Below, piece after piece: positions 2,156 through 63,044 of a stretch of 64,000 nt of DNA. The stretch's first letter is position 1; each line of letters begins with the position of its first letter. Under the pieces are notes generated by a model. It saw only the letters and a list, made by a program, of their open reading frames with translations. It was not told the DNA's origin and made no database searches. The translations under genes were made by a program, and so were the position numbers. The stretch is from Alphaproteobacteria bacterium (lineage in GTDB: Bacteria > Pseudomonadota > Alphaproteobacteria > RF32 > CAG-239), in NCBI GenBank assembly GCA_045659785.1, contig JAZRCM010000002.1:1954-65953 (forward strand). The letters are read 5' to 3'.

Positions 2156-3777
2156 TGACAGAGTACGATGCAAAGGCACAAGAAGAAGATATCAGATATA
2201 TCAGGGGAAAAGTATTACGAAAATTCCCTCTTCTCGGTGTGACTATGGCATCATTGGAAACCTATCCTGACAGCACGATAAAAACGGCTTATACAGATGG
2301 TAAGAGTATACATTACTCTCCTAAGTTTTTTGCTAAACTTTCTGATGAAGAAAAAGTTTTTGTTTATGCTCATGAAGTTATGCATGTAGCTTTCAATCAC
2401 ATTATGCGAAGCAAAGGAAGACACCATAAGTTATGGAATATTGCAACAGATTCCGTGATTAATCAGATATTGAAAGAAGAAGGTCTTCCTCTTGTAAAAG
2501 GCGGTGTAAACATAGAAGAAGCACTTAATAAATCAGCAGAAGAAATGTATGAAAAACTCTTAAAGAAAAGAGAAGAAAAAAGGAAGCAAAAGGAAGAAGA
2601 GGAAAAAAGGAAACAAGAAAAAAGCAATTCGACAACTTCGCAAGATAATCCCGAACAACAGAGAGACAATCAAGAACAGGAAGAAAATCCTCAAAGTCAA
2701 GAAGATAATAATCAGCAAATAGAGAACAACGAAGACAACAATCAAGCTGATAATGAACAAACAGAAAATACCGACGAACAAGAACAACGCGATAACGGAG
2801 ATTCCGAGGAAGGAAACTCCGATGATGAAAATTCCGTCGAAGAAAATGATGATACTTCTGATAATGAAGAAGATAGCGATGAATTTGACGAAGATATTTA
2901 TGATGTTTTAGATGATGAAAACGAAGATGTCGGACACGCAGACCACCAAATTTGGAAACAAGCCGTAGAAGAGGCAGAAAAACAACAAGCTGCAGAAAAC
3001 GTCCAAAGCGGCACAGGAGAAAGAAGCGAAGGTAACAACGATGATACTTTCGAGAAAGGCTTTGTCGCCGATAACAAAGAAGAACGTGCTCAACAAATTA
3101 AACGAGCAAGACAAATGCTTGAAAAAAGCAAAGCTGAAGCTCAAGCTTCAATACAGGGACAATCATTTGGTGATGTGGGGGAAATTTGCAGAGGAGAAGA
3201 AGTTGTTAATTGGAAAAGAGTATTAAAAAATTCAATAGAAAAAGAAGAAATGCGATGGTCATATCGTCGAGCTTCAGCGGAAAATGATTATGCTGCTAGG
3301 TTAGAAGAAGTGGAAACTGATGAAATGGCAGAAACAGAAGTTATGCTTGATGTCAGCGGTTCTGTTAATGAAAAAATGATCAAAGAATTTTTACGACAGC
3401 TTAAACCTATTTTGAAAAGTTCTAAACTCAAAGTCGGTTGTTTTGATGATAGAATATATGATTTTGCAGAAATCAAAAAAGATAAAGATATTGATGAGTT
3501 CAAAGTTCCCGGTGGCGGCGGTACAAATTTAGATAAAGCGGTACGAGCCTTTTCAAAAAGTAAAAAAGTAAACAAAATAGTATTTACGGATGGATATGCA
3601 TGGGGAAGTGATATGCCTCAAGACGATTTGAAAGGCACAAATGTTCTATGGCTCGTCTATGATAACAGAGACTTCCACCCTTGTTGCGGAAAAGTTATTT
3701 ATGTTGACAAAAAACAATTCACGCAAGGAGCAAGACAATCTTTTGCTCAACAAGGAAAAGACGGATACTTATGTTAA
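2155..3777 (+). CDS. DUF2201-type putative Zn metallopeptidase (HExxH) with a C-terminal vWA domain (MIDAS motif) and a very long acidic low-complexity linker.
   Basis: N-terminal YAHEVMHVAFNH followed by WNIATDSVINQ. C-terminal vWA with DVSGSV (DxSxS) and GGGT. About 2540-3140 is E/D/N/Q-rich. Start overlaps the previous stop. Confidence 0.7.
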   Translation: MTEYDAKAQEEDIRYIRGKVLRKFPLLGVTMASLETYPDSTIKTAYTDGKSIHYSPKFFAKLSDEEKVFVYAHEVMHVAFNHIMRSKGRHHKLWNIATDSVINQILKEEGLPLVKGGVNIEEALNKSAEEMYEKLLKKREEKRKQKEEEEKRKQEKSNSTTSQDNPEQQRDNQEQEENPQSQEDNNQQIENNEDNNQADNEQTENTDEQEQRDNGDSEEGNSDDENSVEENDDTSDNEEDSDEFDEDIYDVLDDENEDVGHADHQIWKQAVEEAEKQQAAENVQSGTGERSEGNNDDTFEKGFVADNKEERAQQIKRARQMLEKSKAEAQASIQGQSFGDVGEICRGEEVVNWKRVLKNSIEKEEMRWSYRRASAENDYAARLEEVETDEMAETEVMLDVSGSVNEKMIKEFLRQLKPILKSSKLKVGCFDDRIYDFAEIKKDKDIDEFKVPGGGGTNLDKAVRAFSKSKKVNKIVFTDGYAWGSDMPQDDLKGTNVLWLVYDNRDFHPCCGKVIYVDKKQFTQGARQSFAQQGKDGYLC

Positions 3778-5600
3778 AAATAATAACGGACGGAAGCCAT
3801 AAGTTCTTCTAAATCATTACCGTTTTTATAGTCTTCGTAACGATATTCTGCGGCAAGTCCCCAATTTGTAGAAAGAGGAATATTAGCTTCAACAGAATAT
3901 GTTGTTTTATTGCCTAACCAATTTGTTGCATACATCTGTTTAGCTTCTGCCAAAAGCTTGAAATATTGAAAATGAATATAGCTTCCGGCTGTAAATTCTA
4001 TACCGGCATATTGATTGTGAGGTAAAAATCCGCCATAAGCTCCCTCTACTCCACTATTTATGTAAAACCACAAAAAATCGGTGAGTTCGATAGTGCCACC
4101 ACCATTTACTTTTATTCTTGTTGCATATCCCTCTTTGTCGTTTTCCGGATTTAATACTCGCCAAACATCCCAATTTATGCCAAAAGAAGTCGGTGTAAAC
4201 ATTTGATTAATCGGAGATAATGATTTAATTCCCAATATATTAAATTCGCTTAAAACAGTTTTGTGCGATTTGTCATAATGTCGCCAACGAGAGTTAAGAA
4301 AATTTATTTCCGCTCCGGTTAAAAGGCCATAATCATTATCAGTTAAAGAGTGATATGCCGGACGAAATGATATTTCTTGAAAAGCTTCTCCATTGCGTTT
4401 ACCTGTTCCGATGGTTGTTCTCATCGCTTCGTGAGATTTTAATGGTGATTTTCCTGTAGGATTTTCACTCATTTGAGCCTTTTGATTTTGTAATTTATTG
4501 CGAGCCATCAACCCTTTAAAACTGCGTTTACGATATTCGGTAATTTCAAATTCTTTTTTCACAAATTGATATTGCACATATTGATAAGCAGTTTCCAAAA
4601 CATCGGCTTTTTGCTCGTCAGGAATATTATTCAAGCTATAATCATTATCTTTTACCGCTGCAATAAATGCCTTCTCCTGCTCTTTATTCATCTGCTTTAC
4701 TCTATGCACGATTTTAGATTGTCGTGACGGGCGATAGTTTATATCTTTTACCAAGTTATCGCTGTTATATACGGCCTTTATGGTATCTACCGGAATTGTC
4801 TGAACCGGAAATTTATCGGCAAGTTGCAATGACGGACGAACTGCATCAAGCATTTCCATAATCATATAAGAACAATTTTGGGTAAAGAAATAATAACGAG
4901 TTTGTGTTTGCCCTATTTCCCACAAATGAGCTACAAACATATCCAACTCTTGCGGAGAAAAATTTAAACTCAACTCCCAAATATCACGGTTTTCAATATT
5001 ATTATAGGTATTGATTATGTCATAATACGGTTTTACGGTCCAGCCACCGTAATATCCGCCGGTTAATCCATAAATAGCAAACAACACACTATTTTCTTTC
5101 CCGGCTGTAAAAGCACCATAATTTGCACCATGTGCCAACAGTTGCGTTCCTTGTCTGGATGTATCAATTCGCAATAATGTATGTCCGAAAAGAGACGACG
5201 GATTGTTCATATAAGCATCGGTAAAAAGTAAGGTAACTCCGGATGGTTGCAAGTCTTTTTTGAATTGTTCAAACTCATCACATTTTAGATTAACTTGCTC
5301 TACCAAGCTGTTGTTTTTAAGAAAAATATGTCTTGCCGGAAAAAGACACATTTTTTTCATGTCTTGTTTTTCTTCAAACAATTTTATTGTTGCTTGAAGC
5401 TCACTTTCGGGATTTGTTTTACCATCTTCTGCCAGAAAAAAACTATCACTATCAATACTTGATTCATATCCTCCGAAAAACTTAGGACGATAATGAACGA
5501 GCGACAACCATTGAGGAGAATTTGCCGTATTTTCAACTGCTGAAACCGGCGAAACCAACCACAAAAAACAAAATATGAAAAAAATAAGTCTAATCATCAT
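3774..5600 (-). CDS. Exported DUF4105 (Lnb N-terminal domain)-like protein with a probable C-terminal outer-membrane beta-barrel.
   Basis: Signal peptide MMIRLIFFIFCFLWLVSPVSA. YYFFTQNCSYMIMEMLDAVRP motif, recalled as typical of DUF4105. The protein ends ...SVRYYF, a C-terminal aromatic residue typical of OMPs. Confidence 0.5.
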   Translation of the reverse strand: MMIRLIFFIFCFLWLVSPVSAVENTANSPQWLSLVHYRPKFFGGYESSIDSDSFFLAEDGKTNPESELQATIKLFEEKQDMKKMCLFPARHIFLKNNSLVEQVNLKCDEFEQFKKDLQPSGVTLLFTDAYMNNPSSLFGHTLLRIDTSRQGTQLLAHGANYGAFTAGKENSVLFAIYGLTGGYYGGWTVKPYYDIINTYNNIENRDIWELSLNFSPQELDMFVAHLWEIGQTQTRYYFFTQNCSYMIMEMLDAVRPSLQLADKFPVQTIPVDTIKAVYNSDNLVKDINYRPSRQSKIVHRVKQMNKEQEKAFIAAVKDNDYSLNNIPDEQKADVLETAYQYVQYQFVKKEFEITEYRKRSFKGLMARNKLQNQKAQMSENPTGKSPLKSHEAMRTTIGTGKRNGEAFQEISFRPAYHSLTDNDYGLLTGAEINFLNSRWRHYDKSHKTVLSEFNILGIKSLSPINQMFTPTSFGINWDVWRVLNPENDKEGYATRIKVNGGGTIELTDFLWFYINSGVEGAYGGFLPHNQYAGIEFTAGSYIHFQYFKLLAEAKQMYATNWLGNKTTYSVEANIPLSTNWGLAAEYRYEDYKNGNDLEELMASVRYYF

Positions 5601-60905: not shown

Positions 60906-60943
60906 TTAAACCGCTTTGATTTGTTCTTCAAAGCGGTTTTTTG
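60906..60943. terminator. Bidirectional terminator between uvrA and the minus-strand operon.
   Basis: AAACCGCTTTGATTTGTTCTTCAAAGCGGTTTTTT. Confidence 0.75.
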
Positions 60944-60958
60944 TTAATATTTGATACG

Positions 60959-61171
60959 CTATCGCATACCTTTTAATTGTTTTAAAATTTTGTTGTATCT
61001 GGCACAGATTGCATCGTAATTTTCTTTTGAAATCAATCCTTCGGCAAAACTGTGGCGGTAATAGTCCATCTTGCTCTCTACAAGTGCGACATCTGAATAG
61101 ATAGTCTTTTCCATAGCTAATAAGGTATAAATTATAAAATAACTTCGCAAGACATATATCATTTTGTCCAA
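60959..61171 (-). CDS. Small hypothetical protein (70 aa), last gene of the minus-strand operon.
   Basis: ORF 28 nt downstream of the 279 aa gene. Confidence 0.35.
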   Translation of the reverse strand: MDKMIYVLRSYFIIYTLLAMEKTIYSDVALVESKMDYYRHSFAEGLISKENYDAICARYNKILKQLKGMR

Positions 61172-61199
61172 TATGTCAACACTGATTTTATATCTTCGT

Positions 61200-62039
61200 T
61201 TACCTATTTTTTTGCTTTGCCTTGCTCAAAACGTCTGCATTAACAACTTTTATACCTTGACTCCTAGGATTCTTCTTGCAATATCCGAGACATAGATTTT
61301 CTTCATCTAAATCAGCCCCTCTAAAACCCAACATATTTGATTCATTACCACTTGCTATTTCAAGGAACTCTTCATGTGTCATATCGGTATTATATACTCT
61401 GGGCATTGAACAATTTCTTGAATTAAAAGGATCAAACAAAAGCATTTTTCCGTTATCTTCAATCATTAAAAAATGATGTTCTTCCAAACCTTTCCACTTT
61501 GCTTTTTCTTCTCCGGTTTCTTTATCTGTAAATGTTTTTCCTTGAAGCAATGCACCCGAACATAAATACGATTTTATTCCGCAAGATTGTAAATATACCT
61601 GTGACAAAATAGCACTTTCCGTACACATTCCCATACCGCTAAACATCATGGTTGATAGTTTTACACCATTTTTGTTTTCTTCATCACGCAAAACGGACAT
61701 TCTTTTACCGCCGTCCGTTTTTACATTAAGCATCGATATTTCATCTTGAATACAGGATATTCTCAAATACAATTCCGAAGTAATTCCTAGCTCTTCAGCT
61801 TCTTTTTTAATGTTTCTATAAGTAGATACACCGCCAAAATGTCTGTTTCGTTTTTTATATTCATACCTCGAAGTAGCTCTTTCAAAAATTTCAGAAAAAG
61901 AAGATATATCTGCAATAATATCACAACCTCCTGCTTGGGAAGGAAATGCTTCTTGATTGTACGGAGATGTTGGGATTTTATCCCCTTCCTTTATATCTGT
62001 TATCAGCTGACAAATGTCACTATTATTTGCTACTTGCAT
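61200..62039 (-). CDS. Hypothetical protein with a transglutaminase/papain-like Cys-His-Asp signature.
   Basis: GMCTESAIL, similar to the G-x-C-x-x-x-A motif of transglutaminase-like proteins. A later EHHFLMIED...D segment. No signal peptide. Confidence 0.4.
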   Translation of the reverse strand: MQVANNSDICQLITDIKEGDKIPTSPYNQEAFPSQAGGCDIIADISSFSEIFERATSRYEYKKRNRHFGGVSTYRNIKKEAEELGITSELYLRISCIQDEISMLNVKTDGGKRMSVLRDEENKNGVKLSTMMFSGMGMCTESAILSQVYLQSCGIKSYLCSGALLQGKTFTDKETGEEKAKWKGLEEHHFLMIEDNGKMLLFDPFNSRNCSMPRVYNTDMTHEEFLEIASGNESNMLGFRGADLDEENLCLGYCKKNPRSQGIKVVNADVLSKAKQKNR

Positions 62040-62047
62040 AACAACAC

Positions 62048-62764
62048 CTATTTGGTTGTTTCTACCTCTTCAAGACTTTTGAAAATGCGTTTTGTCATGT
62101 CCATTTTCTTTTGGTCGCTCATTTTTATAAAATCCTCTTTTGTGATATGAACCATATCTTTGCGAGTTTTACGACCTTTCAATGCCGTATTCATCCATTT
62201 CGGATATGTATGGAATACAAGCAATTTTCTTTCATCCATCATAAAAATAAGCTCATAAGGAGTTTTTTTAGAATTATCAAAAGCCATAGAAACATCGCTT
62301 AATCGCAACATATCCGGAAAACGTTTCATAATATTGGGAAATCTGCGTTCAATATCATCAGTAGCAACATCGTGTCCACCATTTCTCACTCTTTGTTGAA
62401 CACGCAAATATGACAAATGGGCTGATGACAAACCGATAAAAATGGAAGCTATATTAAAGCCCTCTTCTTTAGCCATTTCAATGAGCTTCAAATGTGTTCT
62501 TCCCGAAGCGGTCGTTTCATATATAAAAGTTTGTTTTTTTTCCATTTTTTCACGCAAACGATTGCGAATATTACGCCCTGCTTCAAACATAAAATCGTTT
62601 ACATCTCCGTCTTCTCCTGCCAGCTCTTTAGCTTCATTATCCAAATTTATAAATTCGGCTTTTTTGAAAAACGGATCATCTTTCAAAACTTGGTCATAAA
62701 AAGTAGATTTACCTGCTCCGTTAGGACCGGCAATAACAATCATCCACGGTTTTGCTTTAGCCAT
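62048..62764 (-). CDS. Zeta-toxin/COG4185-like P-loop kinase family protein.
   Basis: MIVIAGPNGAGKSTFY Walker A right at the N-terminus, about 240 aa. Start taken at MAKAK; the ORF track extends to 62779. Confidence 0.55.
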   Translation of the reverse strand: MAKAKPWMIVIAGPNGAGKSTFYDQVLKDDPFFKKAEFINLDNEAKELAGEDGDVNDFMFEAGRNIRNRLREKMEKKQTFIYETTASGRTHLKLIEMAKEEGFNIASIFIGLSSAHLSYLRVQQRVRNGGHDVATDDIERRFPNIMKRFPDMLRLSDVSMAFDNSKKTPYELIFMMDERKLLVFHTYPKWMNTALKGRKTRKDMVHITKEDFIKMSDQKKMDMTKRIFKSLEEVETTK

Positions 62765-62936
62765 TGTAAACCCCCGCAATATGTTCGTTATAGTCTTTAT
62801 CTAAAGTCACAATGTAACGTGTACCATCTTTCTCTTCTCTGATAATACAATCGTTTTCTTCGTAATATTTCGGATAGGTATCTATCTCTATTTTACCTTG
62901 TAATCTTACAAATTTTCTTTTGAAATATTCAAACAT
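62757..62936 (-). CDS. Small 59 aa ORF missing from the supplied track. Its stop overlaps the start of the P-loop kinase gene (candidate antitoxin or adaptor).
   Basis: Translation MFEYFKRKFVRLQGKIEIDTYPKYYEENDCIIREEKDGTRYIVTLDKDYNEHIAGVYNG. SD GGAGAT 6 nt upstream. ATGGCTAA overlap with the downstream start. Confidence 0.45.
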   Translation of the reverse strand: MFEYFKRKFVRLQGKIEIDTYPKYYEENDCIIREEKDGTRYIVTLDKDYNEHIAGVYNG

Positions 62937-63044
62937 TGTTATCTCCTATATTTGACGATAATAATTTATTTTTGACAAAAAAGCAAATAAAAAAAACGGT
63001 TTTGATTACACAACCAAAACCGCTTTGACAATCAGAAGAAAAAA

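Follow-up and report, generated by a model that had tools for sequence, protein, structure and literature searches.

Four open reading frames (ORFs) of the same orientation fill the interval between gyrA and uvrA in an alphaproteobacterium (GTDB lineage RF32; CAG-239), and the question raised by this locus is whether they encode a single system or merely share a location. The window, by which we mean the whole stretch of 64,000 nucleotides that was analyzed (assembly GCA_045659785.1, contig JAZRCM010000002.1, positions 1,954 to 65,953 of the forward strand), contains these ORFs on the minus strand, where gyrA ends upstream of them and uvrA converges on them from the other side, and they encode proteins of 59, 239, 279, and 51 amino acids. 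A preliminary description, made from the sequence without database searches, had regarded them as a candidate toxin-antitoxin or abortive-infection-like module with an extra enzymatic component, or else as a secreted-effector operon. Our analysis points to a smaller unit. We estimate a probability of roughly 60% that the functional unit is a mobile, type II-like toxin-antitoxin cassette of 2 genes, namely the gene for the 59-amino acid protein and the gene for the 239-amino acid kinase; the genes for the 279- and 51-amino acid proteins are local passengers and not parts of the conserved cassette.

An overlapping gene pair in different genomic contexts

The 59-amino acid ORF (62757-62936, minus strand) is preceded by an AGGAG Shine-Dalgarno motif, located 7 nucleotides before its ATG codon, and ends in ...TACAATGGCTAA (codons TAC AAT GGC TAA). 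The ATG codon of the kinase gene (62048-62767, minus strand, counted from this ATG) is located at position 62767, inside the end of the small ORF, which gives an overlap of 8 nucleotides (ATGGCTAA), and the encoded kinase begins with MAKAKPWMIVIAGPNGAGKST. Both the good ribosome-binding site and the overlap that had been ascribed to the small ORF were therefore recovered. In comparisons with relatives, the ratio of nonsynonymous to synonymous substitution rates (dN/dS) ranged from 0.01 to 0.14 for the 59-amino acid ORF and from 0.05 to 0.24 for the kinase gene, and from 0.16 to 0.19 and 0.16 to 0.20 for the 279- and 51-amino acid ORFs, respectively. All 4 ORFs are thus under purifying selection and are not chance ORFs, and the low values for the 59-amino acid ORF, for which the selection was at least as strong as for the kinase, identify it as protein-coding.

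All of the close and moderately distant relatives that were examined had an ORF of 58 to 61 amino acids that overlapped the start of the kinase gene by 4 or 8 nucleotides, and the encoded proteins were 43% to 98% identical. The family was represented by 35 clusters in a collection of 5.8 billion proteins, all of which were 57 to 90 amino acids long and unnamed. The small ORF upstream of the kinase gene is thus a genuine and conserved gene that overlaps its partner, as fits a toxin-antitoxin pair.

The pair, including the overlapping stop and start codons, was identified in at least 6 chromosomal neighborhoods of related uncultured Alphaproteobacteria. It was located together with the genes for the 279- and 51-amino acid proteins between gyrA and uvrA in the window and in the relatives L009, L011, and L012. 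Elsewhere, it was flanked by genes for a tRNA synthetase and a lysozyme-domain protein (L001), for MatE and trigger factor, tig (L002), for KsgA and, on the other side, a segment leading to xerC (L003 to L005), for DUF308 and bPH_2 proteins (L015 and L016), and for MatE and a GtrA-like protein (L034). It was also noted that the gene located directly downstream of the pair in L001 (2518-3603), a 77% relative, encodes a Phage_lysozyme-domain protein of 361 amino acids and occupies the slot held by the 279-amino acid gene in the window. An empty-site test, in which the window was searched for the genes that flank the pair elsewhere, found none of them.

Homologs of the kinase are also carried by plasmids. 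A tblastn search with the kinase against PLSDB identified 607 plasmid records with 27% to 36% sequence identity, in which the homologs were annotated as "zeta toxin family protein" or "AAA family ATPase". In 5 plasmids, a gene for a "hypothetical protein" of 75 to 131 amino acids overlapped the start of the kinase gene. This was the arrangement on the Cupriavidus plasmid, and the pair was located next to repA on the Burkholderia plasmid, between kleE and trfB-parA-parB on the conjugative E. coli plasmid pYDC107_41 (L027, 1989-2830), between IS6 copies on the Piscirickettsia plasmid, and on pZM33 in Zymomonas. The plasmid partner family was present in 83 to 94 plasmid records.

More distant kinase loci were searched for with a sequence pattern. 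A search of genome contigs for GPNGAGK[ST]T yielded 2 distant loci, both of which contained a partner-like small ORF, and a scan of metagenome contigs yielded 2 loci. Small ORFs beside distant kinases were observed in a Bacteroidota genome, in which the ORF was located upstream of the kinase gene and abutted it, and in a plasmid-like contig. In an Acidobacteriota metagenome-assembled genome (L013, 3893-4755), a partner-like ORF of 61 amino acids was located downstream of the kinase gene and overlapped its stop codon, which is the opposite of the gene order in all proteobacterial examples. A comparison of 3 partners from other phyla (A7) with the 59-amino acid family gave 39%, and a comparison of the same set with the plasmid partners gave 66%, which is suggestive of a relationship between these small ORFs and the 59-amino acid family.

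The 2 genes do not always occur together. A kinase homolog with 41% identity (L017) was found without a small partner; 2 genes for PP-binding carrier proteins were located directly after the kinase gene in this locus (2560-2920; 3001-4644), and a tandem repeat of about 90 nucleotides upstream of it was visible as repeated peptide strings in the ORF translations. Kinase-less partner genes were seen on pGOX5 (2.7 kb; L026, 919-1164) and on the E. coli plasmids pB379_5 (2.5 kb; L036, 2151-2435) and pMB9880_4 (L035, 2321-2674), and the plasmids of this kind were very small RepL-type and mobilizable ones. Reversed gene order, partner-only, and kinase-only arrangements make up a patchiness that is typical of toxin-antitoxin modules. 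In addition, the Enterococcus plasmid NZ_CP033739.1 (L024, 1311-2109) contained an intact ORF for a short zeta-like kinase of about 203 amino acids with 32% identity to the kinase in the window. This ORF, which was missing from the PLSDB gene table, was preceded by a helical ORF of 61 amino acids and was located between the epsilon antitoxin and zeta toxin genes of an omega-epsilon-zeta cassette.

The kinase and its small partner

The kinase matched the Pfam family Zeta_toxin (PF06414) with 33.4 bits (E-value 4e-8; cut-off 22.3), and residues 4 to 150 aligned to positions 13 to 170 of the 199 positions in the profile. Its best Pfam match was AAA_33, also above cut-off (48.3 bits, 1.7e-12). More than 1,000 homologs were identified, the closest of which (50% to 98% identity) were from uncultured Alphaproteobacteria, while those farther away (33% to 40% identity) were about 195 amino acids long and labeled "predicted ABC-type ATPase". 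Residues G14, N16, G17, A18, G19, K20, T22, N41, D43, E84, R122, R126, G130, G131, H132, and N165 were invariant in 44 homologs. These include the Walker A motif (G14 to T22, GPNGAGKS/T), the N41-x-D43 motif, and the GGH motif at positions 130 to 132; D43 is the candidate equivalent of Asp67 of zeta, as judged from the sequence pattern (I-N-L-D versus I-D-N-D). The position of the Walker A motif at the extreme N-terminus had been taken as a zeta-like feature. The motif is indeed located there in this protein, but it is not so placed in zeta and PezT themselves, in which the catalytic residues are Asp67 and Asp66.

The AlphaFold2 (AF2) model of the kinase had a mean predicted local distance difference test (pLDDT) score of 89. 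A Foldseek search with this model against PDB gave the polynucleotide kinase of C. thermocellum as the top match (E-value 6e-8, target-normalized template modeling score, TMt, 0.70), followed by AvrRxo1 (5e-7), which had the highest query-normalized TM-score (0.60 to 0.63), PezT (2p5t; 5e-7) and zeta (1gvn/3q8x; about 1e-6), both with a probability of 1.0 and a TM-score of about 0.5, ng_zeta1 (8e-5), and adenylate and UMP/CMP kinases (3e-5 or weaker). The sequence identity to all of these listed matches was 10% to 17%. In a search of PDB sequences, the profile of the kinase family matched Pnkp1 (6.6e-5 over 136 residues) and PezT (3.4e-3). The kinase thus belongs to the zeta/PezT superfamily but lacks the canonical site for UDP-N-acetylglucosamine (UNAG), and the zeta-toxin-like character first assigned to it was borne out by the above-threshold Zeta_toxin match and by the folds of PezT, zeta, and AvrRxo1. 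The G-T-x-R motif that binds UNAG was missing, and the matching segment was F-I-Y-E-T-T-A-S-G-R, for which the consensus in the family was ETTxSGR. Since the motif is missing, the substrate is probably not UNAG. Characterized relatives phosphorylate UDP-GlcNAc, UDP-MurNAc, or NAD.

A housekeeping kinase was considered and rejected. The NCBIfam kinase models, among them those of guanylate and shikimate kinase, matched the P-loop only, with 13 to 18 bits as compared with cut-offs of 160 to 750, and the bacter_Pnkp model reached 13 bits (cut-off 750). A known anti-phage defense system was likewise rejected, since the only matches of the kinase in PADLOC-DB 2.0 were local to the P-loop (about 20 residues), and the 59-amino acid, 279-amino acid, and fourth proteins had no match in this database. 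A comparison with PHROGs gave a generic ATPase match only.

The partner was more difficult to classify. The 59-amino acid protein had no match in Pfam, NCBIfam, PADLOC, or PDB sequences, and a literature search found no paper that describes its family. The family nonetheless extends to plasmids. An hhalign comparison of 27 sequences of the 59-amino acid family with 6 plasmid partners gave a probability of 94.7% (E-value 5.9e-8) over residues 19 to 55, with the shared motif P-x-Y-Y...G-x-I-[KR]-E-x-x-D-G-x-R-x-[LI]-V-x-[LF]-D. Furthermore, the plasmid-partner profile (A8, residues ~45 to 70) matched the β-hairpin repeats of the CPAP/SAS-4 G-box (TCP10_C) with an E-value of 1e-7 through units of the type YPDGRRE, which suggests a β-hairpin architecture in the partners, unlike the helical epsilon and PezA proteins. 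The repeat motif may have arisen by convergence, or the match may reflect a hairpin module that both have in common. In Sphingomonas, one homolog of the partner bears the annotation "T-complex 10 C-terminal domain protein".

We tentatively suggest, as a possibility that we would not yet call probable, that the 59-amino acid protein and its plasmid relatives of 75 to 85 amino acids represent a new and widespread class of antitoxins or kinase regulators. These proteins would be built from β-hairpin units of the type P-x-Y-Y ... G-x-I-K-E-x-P-D-G-R-R-x-L-V that resemble the CPAP/TCP10 G-box, and they would control a distinct clade of short zeta-fold kinases with a target other than UDP-GlcNAc. 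If such a class exists, a family of addiction or defense systems on plasmids and chromosomes has been missed by the current catalogs of toxin-antitoxin and defense systems.

A toxin-antitoxin cassette could operate as follows. The acidic 59-amino acid protein (isoelectric point, pI, 5.3) would be made first, and the overlap of 8 nucleotides between stop and start codons would couple its translation to that of the basic kinase (pI 9.4), which it is proposed to bind and hold inactive; the complementary charges of the 2 proteins speak for such a pair. Upon loss or degradation of the small protein, the kinase would use ATP to phosphorylate an essential metabolite, resulting in growth arrest. Candidate active residues are the Walker A residue K20, D43 as the candidate catalytic base, and R122/R126. 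The pair is mobile, as shown by its different chromosomal sites in related genomes, and the cassette would behave as a self-stabilizing element; its relatives are located in plasmid maintenance regions.

Several observations weigh against this interpretation. A generic family, AAA_33, scores best in Pfam and a polynucleotide kinase in the fold comparison, and once the P-loop was removed, the profile of the kinase family gave no zeta or PezT match among PDB sequences. The kinase gene is conserved at 50% to 77% identity across many related genomes in contexts that look reduced, which could equally suit a beneficial cellular role. Neither the 59-amino acid protein nor 5 plasmid and other partners had any Pfam match, the ribbon-helix-helix (RHH)/ParD_like domain (PF11903) included. 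The partner has no DNA-binding domain, so that the usual autoregulation is not evident. It is also unrelated in sequence to epsilon, PezA, ng_epsilon1, and Arc1, no chain of which was identified at E-values up to 10 in searches of PDB with the profiles of the 59-amino acid family (A6) and the plasmid partners (A8). A scan for the sigma-70 consensus on the minus strand upstream of the 59-amino acid ORF called no promoter. Finally, partner-like genes without a kinase gene occur on plasmids of 2.5 to 8.8 kb. These may be antitoxin-only "anti-addiction" genes, or they may encode a domain with an independent function, and it is the latter that would speak against an antitoxin.

The kinase might instead be a non-toxic cellular enzyme, such as a polynucleotide or small-molecule kinase in repair or metabolism, for which the 59-amino acid protein would serve as a regulatory or adaptor subunit. 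The top fold match, the Pnkp1 profile match, and AAA_33 as the leading Pfam family are in line with such an enzyme, as are the strong purifying selection, the wide conservation within the clade, and a partner without a DNA-binding domain. However, no gene for a phosphatase, ligase, or Hen1 was located nearby in any locus examined, the housekeeping models match nothing beyond the P-loop, the chromosomal site of the cassette differs from one related genome to another, its relatives reside in regions for plasmid stability and replication, and each of the 2 genes also occurs without the other. We therefore consider a benign kinase unlikely and favor the toxin-antitoxin cassette.

The downstream genes and the boundaries of the interval

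The interval is delimited by 2 terminator-like hairpins. The one located after gyrA (62993-63026, minus strand), with a T-run and a stem of 15 pairs followed by TTTTATTT, delimits the transcription unit on its upstream side, and a bidirectional hairpin (60908-60939, both strands), with a stem of 12 pairs and T-runs on both strands, marks the downstream boundary and is common to the convergent uvrA. Coordinates and hairpin scan thus agree with the layout outlined in the preliminary description, in which 4 ORFs on the minus strand end at a terminator shared with uvrA. The third ORF (61200-62039, minus strand) begins 8 nucleotides past the stop codon of the kinase gene and encodes the 279-amino acid protein, in which the GMCTESA and EHHFLMIED motifs are present.

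The 279-amino acid protein belongs to a tiny family, with 5 close homologs and 18 relatives at E-values up to 1e-3 among 1.84 billion representatives. S129, C139, E141, H188, and D203 remained invariant at identities as low as 20%, the triad residues C139, H188, and D203 in 19 sequences. The order of the triad was Cys...His...Asp, its members being 49 and 15 residues apart, and the motif G-x-C-x-E...G-I-x-S-Y...H-x-F-L...D-P is as in transglutaminase-like cores. The protein itself was below the Pfam thresholds for Transglut_core and the CEP76 peptidase domain, and family members matched DUF553 (7.7e-6), Tox-PLDMTX (2.6e-5), Transglut_core (1.7e-4), and arylamine N-acetyltransferase (Acetyltransf_2). 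The family profile gave weak matches to Bacillus N-acetyltransferase and SseI. The AF2 model had a pLDDT score of 80, and its top Foldseek matches, although weak (5e-3 to 5e-2), were exclusively to transglutaminase-like Cys enzymes, namely TglA, a TGase, a transglutaminase-like protease of Cytophaga, vasohibins, staphopain, and SseI. Matches of residues 27 to 82 to giant proteins were discarded as repeat-driven. Judged from these motifs and the model, the protein is assigned to the Cys-His-Asp enzymes of the transglutaminase/papain type at the superfamily level only, in agreement with the arrangement of residues that was first recognized by eye. It shares the ordered triad with Transglut_core, DUF553, vasohibin, the SseI/PMT-C3 deamidases, and the arylamine N-acetyltransferases, and differs from enzymes of the transglutaminase/papain fold by its own N-terminal helical domain of about 125 amino acids and by the small size of its family.

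The last ORF was originally described as encoding 70 amino acids from a TTG codon at 61171. A conserved ORF exists at this site, but the gene is located at 60959-61114 (minus strand), with an ATG codon at 61114, and encodes 51 amino acids (MEKTIYSD...LKQLKGMR), as inferred from the calls of 51 amino acids in L009 and L012 and from the stop codons that break the TTG-start extension in L009, where the frame of 51 amino acids is kept at an amino acid identity of only 53%. The protein had no family match. In the segment 61115-61199, a perfect TTGACA box, kept in all 4 syntenic genomes, and a TATAAT sequence were noted upstream of this ORF; the TTG codon at 61171 lies inside TTGACA, and the consensus scan called no promoter there. 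The 51-amino acid gene may have a promoter of its own.

Could these 2 genes nevertheless belong with the pair in one toxin-antitoxin or abortive-infection system, with the transglutaminase-like enzyme as a third effector component? The location of the 4 ORFs on one strand between 2 terminators, the distance of only 8 nucleotides between the kinase and 279-amino acid genes, and the retention of the arrangement in 3 syntenic relatives are as expected for such a system. However, these relatives (L009, L011, and L012) are 83% to 98% identical and represent the same lineage, and they are the only genomes in which the 279-amino acid gene adjoins the kinase gene. In the 5 other chromosomal contexts and on the plasmids, the pair occurs without the 279- and 51-amino acid genes, as it does in all more distant genomes. 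Conversely, a homolog of the 279-amino acid protein with 61% identity is encoded by a gene that follows ruvC with no kinase gene nearby, and the homologs with 23% to 36% identity are also kinase-free.

The 279-amino acid gene also has its own recombinational history, as indicated by a switch of nearest relative and by discordant values of dS. In a sliding-window analysis of sequence identity, the window was closest to L011 and L012 (0.92 to 0.99) in gyrA, the 59-amino acid ORF, the kinase gene, the 51-amino acid ORF, and uvrA, and everywhere else except inside the 279-amino acid gene (61297-61740), where it was closest to L009 (0.93 to 0.97, as compared with 0.83 to 0.86 for L011 and L012). 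Such a switch points to allele exchange by recombination, with breakpoints that part the gene from its flanks, and the dS values were likewise discordant. It also evolves faster than its neighbors (dN 0.09 versus 0.01).

A system of 4 genes is thereby largely refuted by its distribution, and the PADLOC result and the conserved TTGACA box before the 51-amino acid ORF argue in the same direction; we give it hardly any credence. The 279- and 51-amino acid genes merely share the slot between gyrA and uvrA, and probably a transcript, with the pair in one lineage, in which the 279-amino acid gene is probably co-transcribed with the pair as a lineage-specific neighbor. The juxtaposition of a kinase and a cysteine enzyme is a local one, and this "operon" should not be cataloged as a new multi-enzyme system.

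The proposal of a secreted-effector operon is also very improbable. According to this proposal, the kinase would be a secreted effector similar to AvrRxo1, the 59-amino acid protein its chaperone and immunity factor, and the 279-amino acid protein a second effector of the papain or deamidase type, directed against host or competitor cells. AvrRxo1 gave the highest query-normalized TM-score, AvrRxo1-Arc1 combines the roles of an effector/chaperone pair and a toxin-antitoxin pair (PMC4938570), some members of the 279-amino acid family match Tox-PLDMTX and weakly SseI, and the gene for this protein is fast-evolving and recombining. On the other hand, neither a secretion signal nor genes of a secretion system nor an extension at the N-terminus was seen, the kinase has half the length of AvrRxo1, its partner is encoded upstream rather than downstream and is unrelated to Arc1, and the plasmid relatives are located in maintenance regions and not in virulence loci.

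Relation to known systems

The toxin-antitoxin cassette proposed here is in principle unsurprising, and its interest for those who study toxin-antitoxin systems and plasmids is moderate. Few toxins of toxin-antitoxin systems act as poisons of cell-wall or cofactor metabolism, and kinases of the zeta/PezT type are among these few. Proteobacteria account for nearly half of the PezT/zeta homologs, and most homologs lack a recognized antitoxin or a known substrate (PMC10532202); according to the same review from 2023, homologs outside the canonical systems lack experimental study, and for many of them no antitoxin is known.

The epsilon/zeta and PezA/PezT systems of Streptococcus (1GVN, 3Q8X, 2P5T) share with the pair in the window the PF06414 domain, the phosphotransferase fold, and a small gene located upstream of the kinase gene. 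They differ by an extra N-terminal segment of about 30 amino acids, the G-T-x-R site for UNAG, and antitoxins that form a three-helix bundle, none of which was found in the pair. The kinases are 12% to 17% identical, and no similarity in sequence can be detected once the P-loop is left out. As judged from the UNAG motif and antitoxin homology, membership of the pair in the canonical epsilon/zeta and PezAT systems fails.

Zeta-fold kinases that are neutralized by small proteins unrelated to epsilon are exemplified by AvrRxo1-Arc1 of Xanthomonas (4Z8Q) and ng_epsilon1/ng_zeta1 of Neisseria (6EPG), which show that the fold accepts other substrates (NAD and UDP-MurNAc) and other inhibitor architectures. 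AvrRxo1 and ng_zeta1 are much larger (about 400 amino acids; AvrRxo1 about 420) than the kinase of 239 amino acids, their antitoxin genes are located downstream and not upstream, and their antitoxins show no sequence relation to the 59-amino acid protein. The pair is alike AvrRxo1-Arc1 in fold only, and the PDB profile search gave no match to Arc1. As for Pnkp/Hen1 RNA repair, the kinase fold matches, but no phosphatase, ligase, or Hen1 domains or neighbors were found in the loci examined.

The closest characterized system is Rv0366c-Rv0367c of M. tuberculosis, in which Rv0366c, a short zeta-like kinase without the UNAG motif and with Asp36 as the catalytic residue, is a validated toxin (PMC6362051). 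Like the kinase in the window, Rv0366c is short, has its Walker A motif near the N-terminus, and does not conserve G-T-x-R (PMC6362051); it retains the catalytic Asp, for which D43 is the candidate in the window. At both loci, a small gene is located directly upstream of the kinase gene, and a third, unrelated gene farther downstream is predicted to belong to the operon. The antitoxin Rv0367c differs, however, in having 129 amino acids and an RHH/ParD-like domain, as compared with 59 amino acids, no DNA-binding domain, and no Pfam family for the partner in the window, and toxicity has been demonstrated for Rv0366c, whereas the kinase in the window is a putative toxin.

For the plasmid pairs, such as those on E. 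coli pYDC107_41, Burkholderia contaminans plasmids, Zymomonas pZM33, and Piscirickettsia plasmids, no record of an experimental study was found. These consist of a "hypothetical protein" of 75 to 85 amino acids and a kinase of about 195 amino acids. Their partners are longer by an N-terminal segment of about 40 amino acids, and their kinases are without the C-terminal extension of about 45 amino acids in the window kinase. The kinases share 27% to 36% identity with the latter, along with the motifs ETT, RVxxRVxxGGH, and DNS, and the pairs agree with the pair in the window in gene order, in the overlap of stop and start codons, and in having a homologous partner. The locus thereby ties an unnamed family of small proteins to zeta-like kinases, which occur together on chromosomes of uncultured Alphaproteobacteria of the gut type as well as on E. 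coli, Salmonella, Klebsiella, Burkholderia, Zymomonas, and Piscirickettsia plasmids, and it provides a concrete candidate antitoxin for which an E. coli plasmid offers a tractable model.

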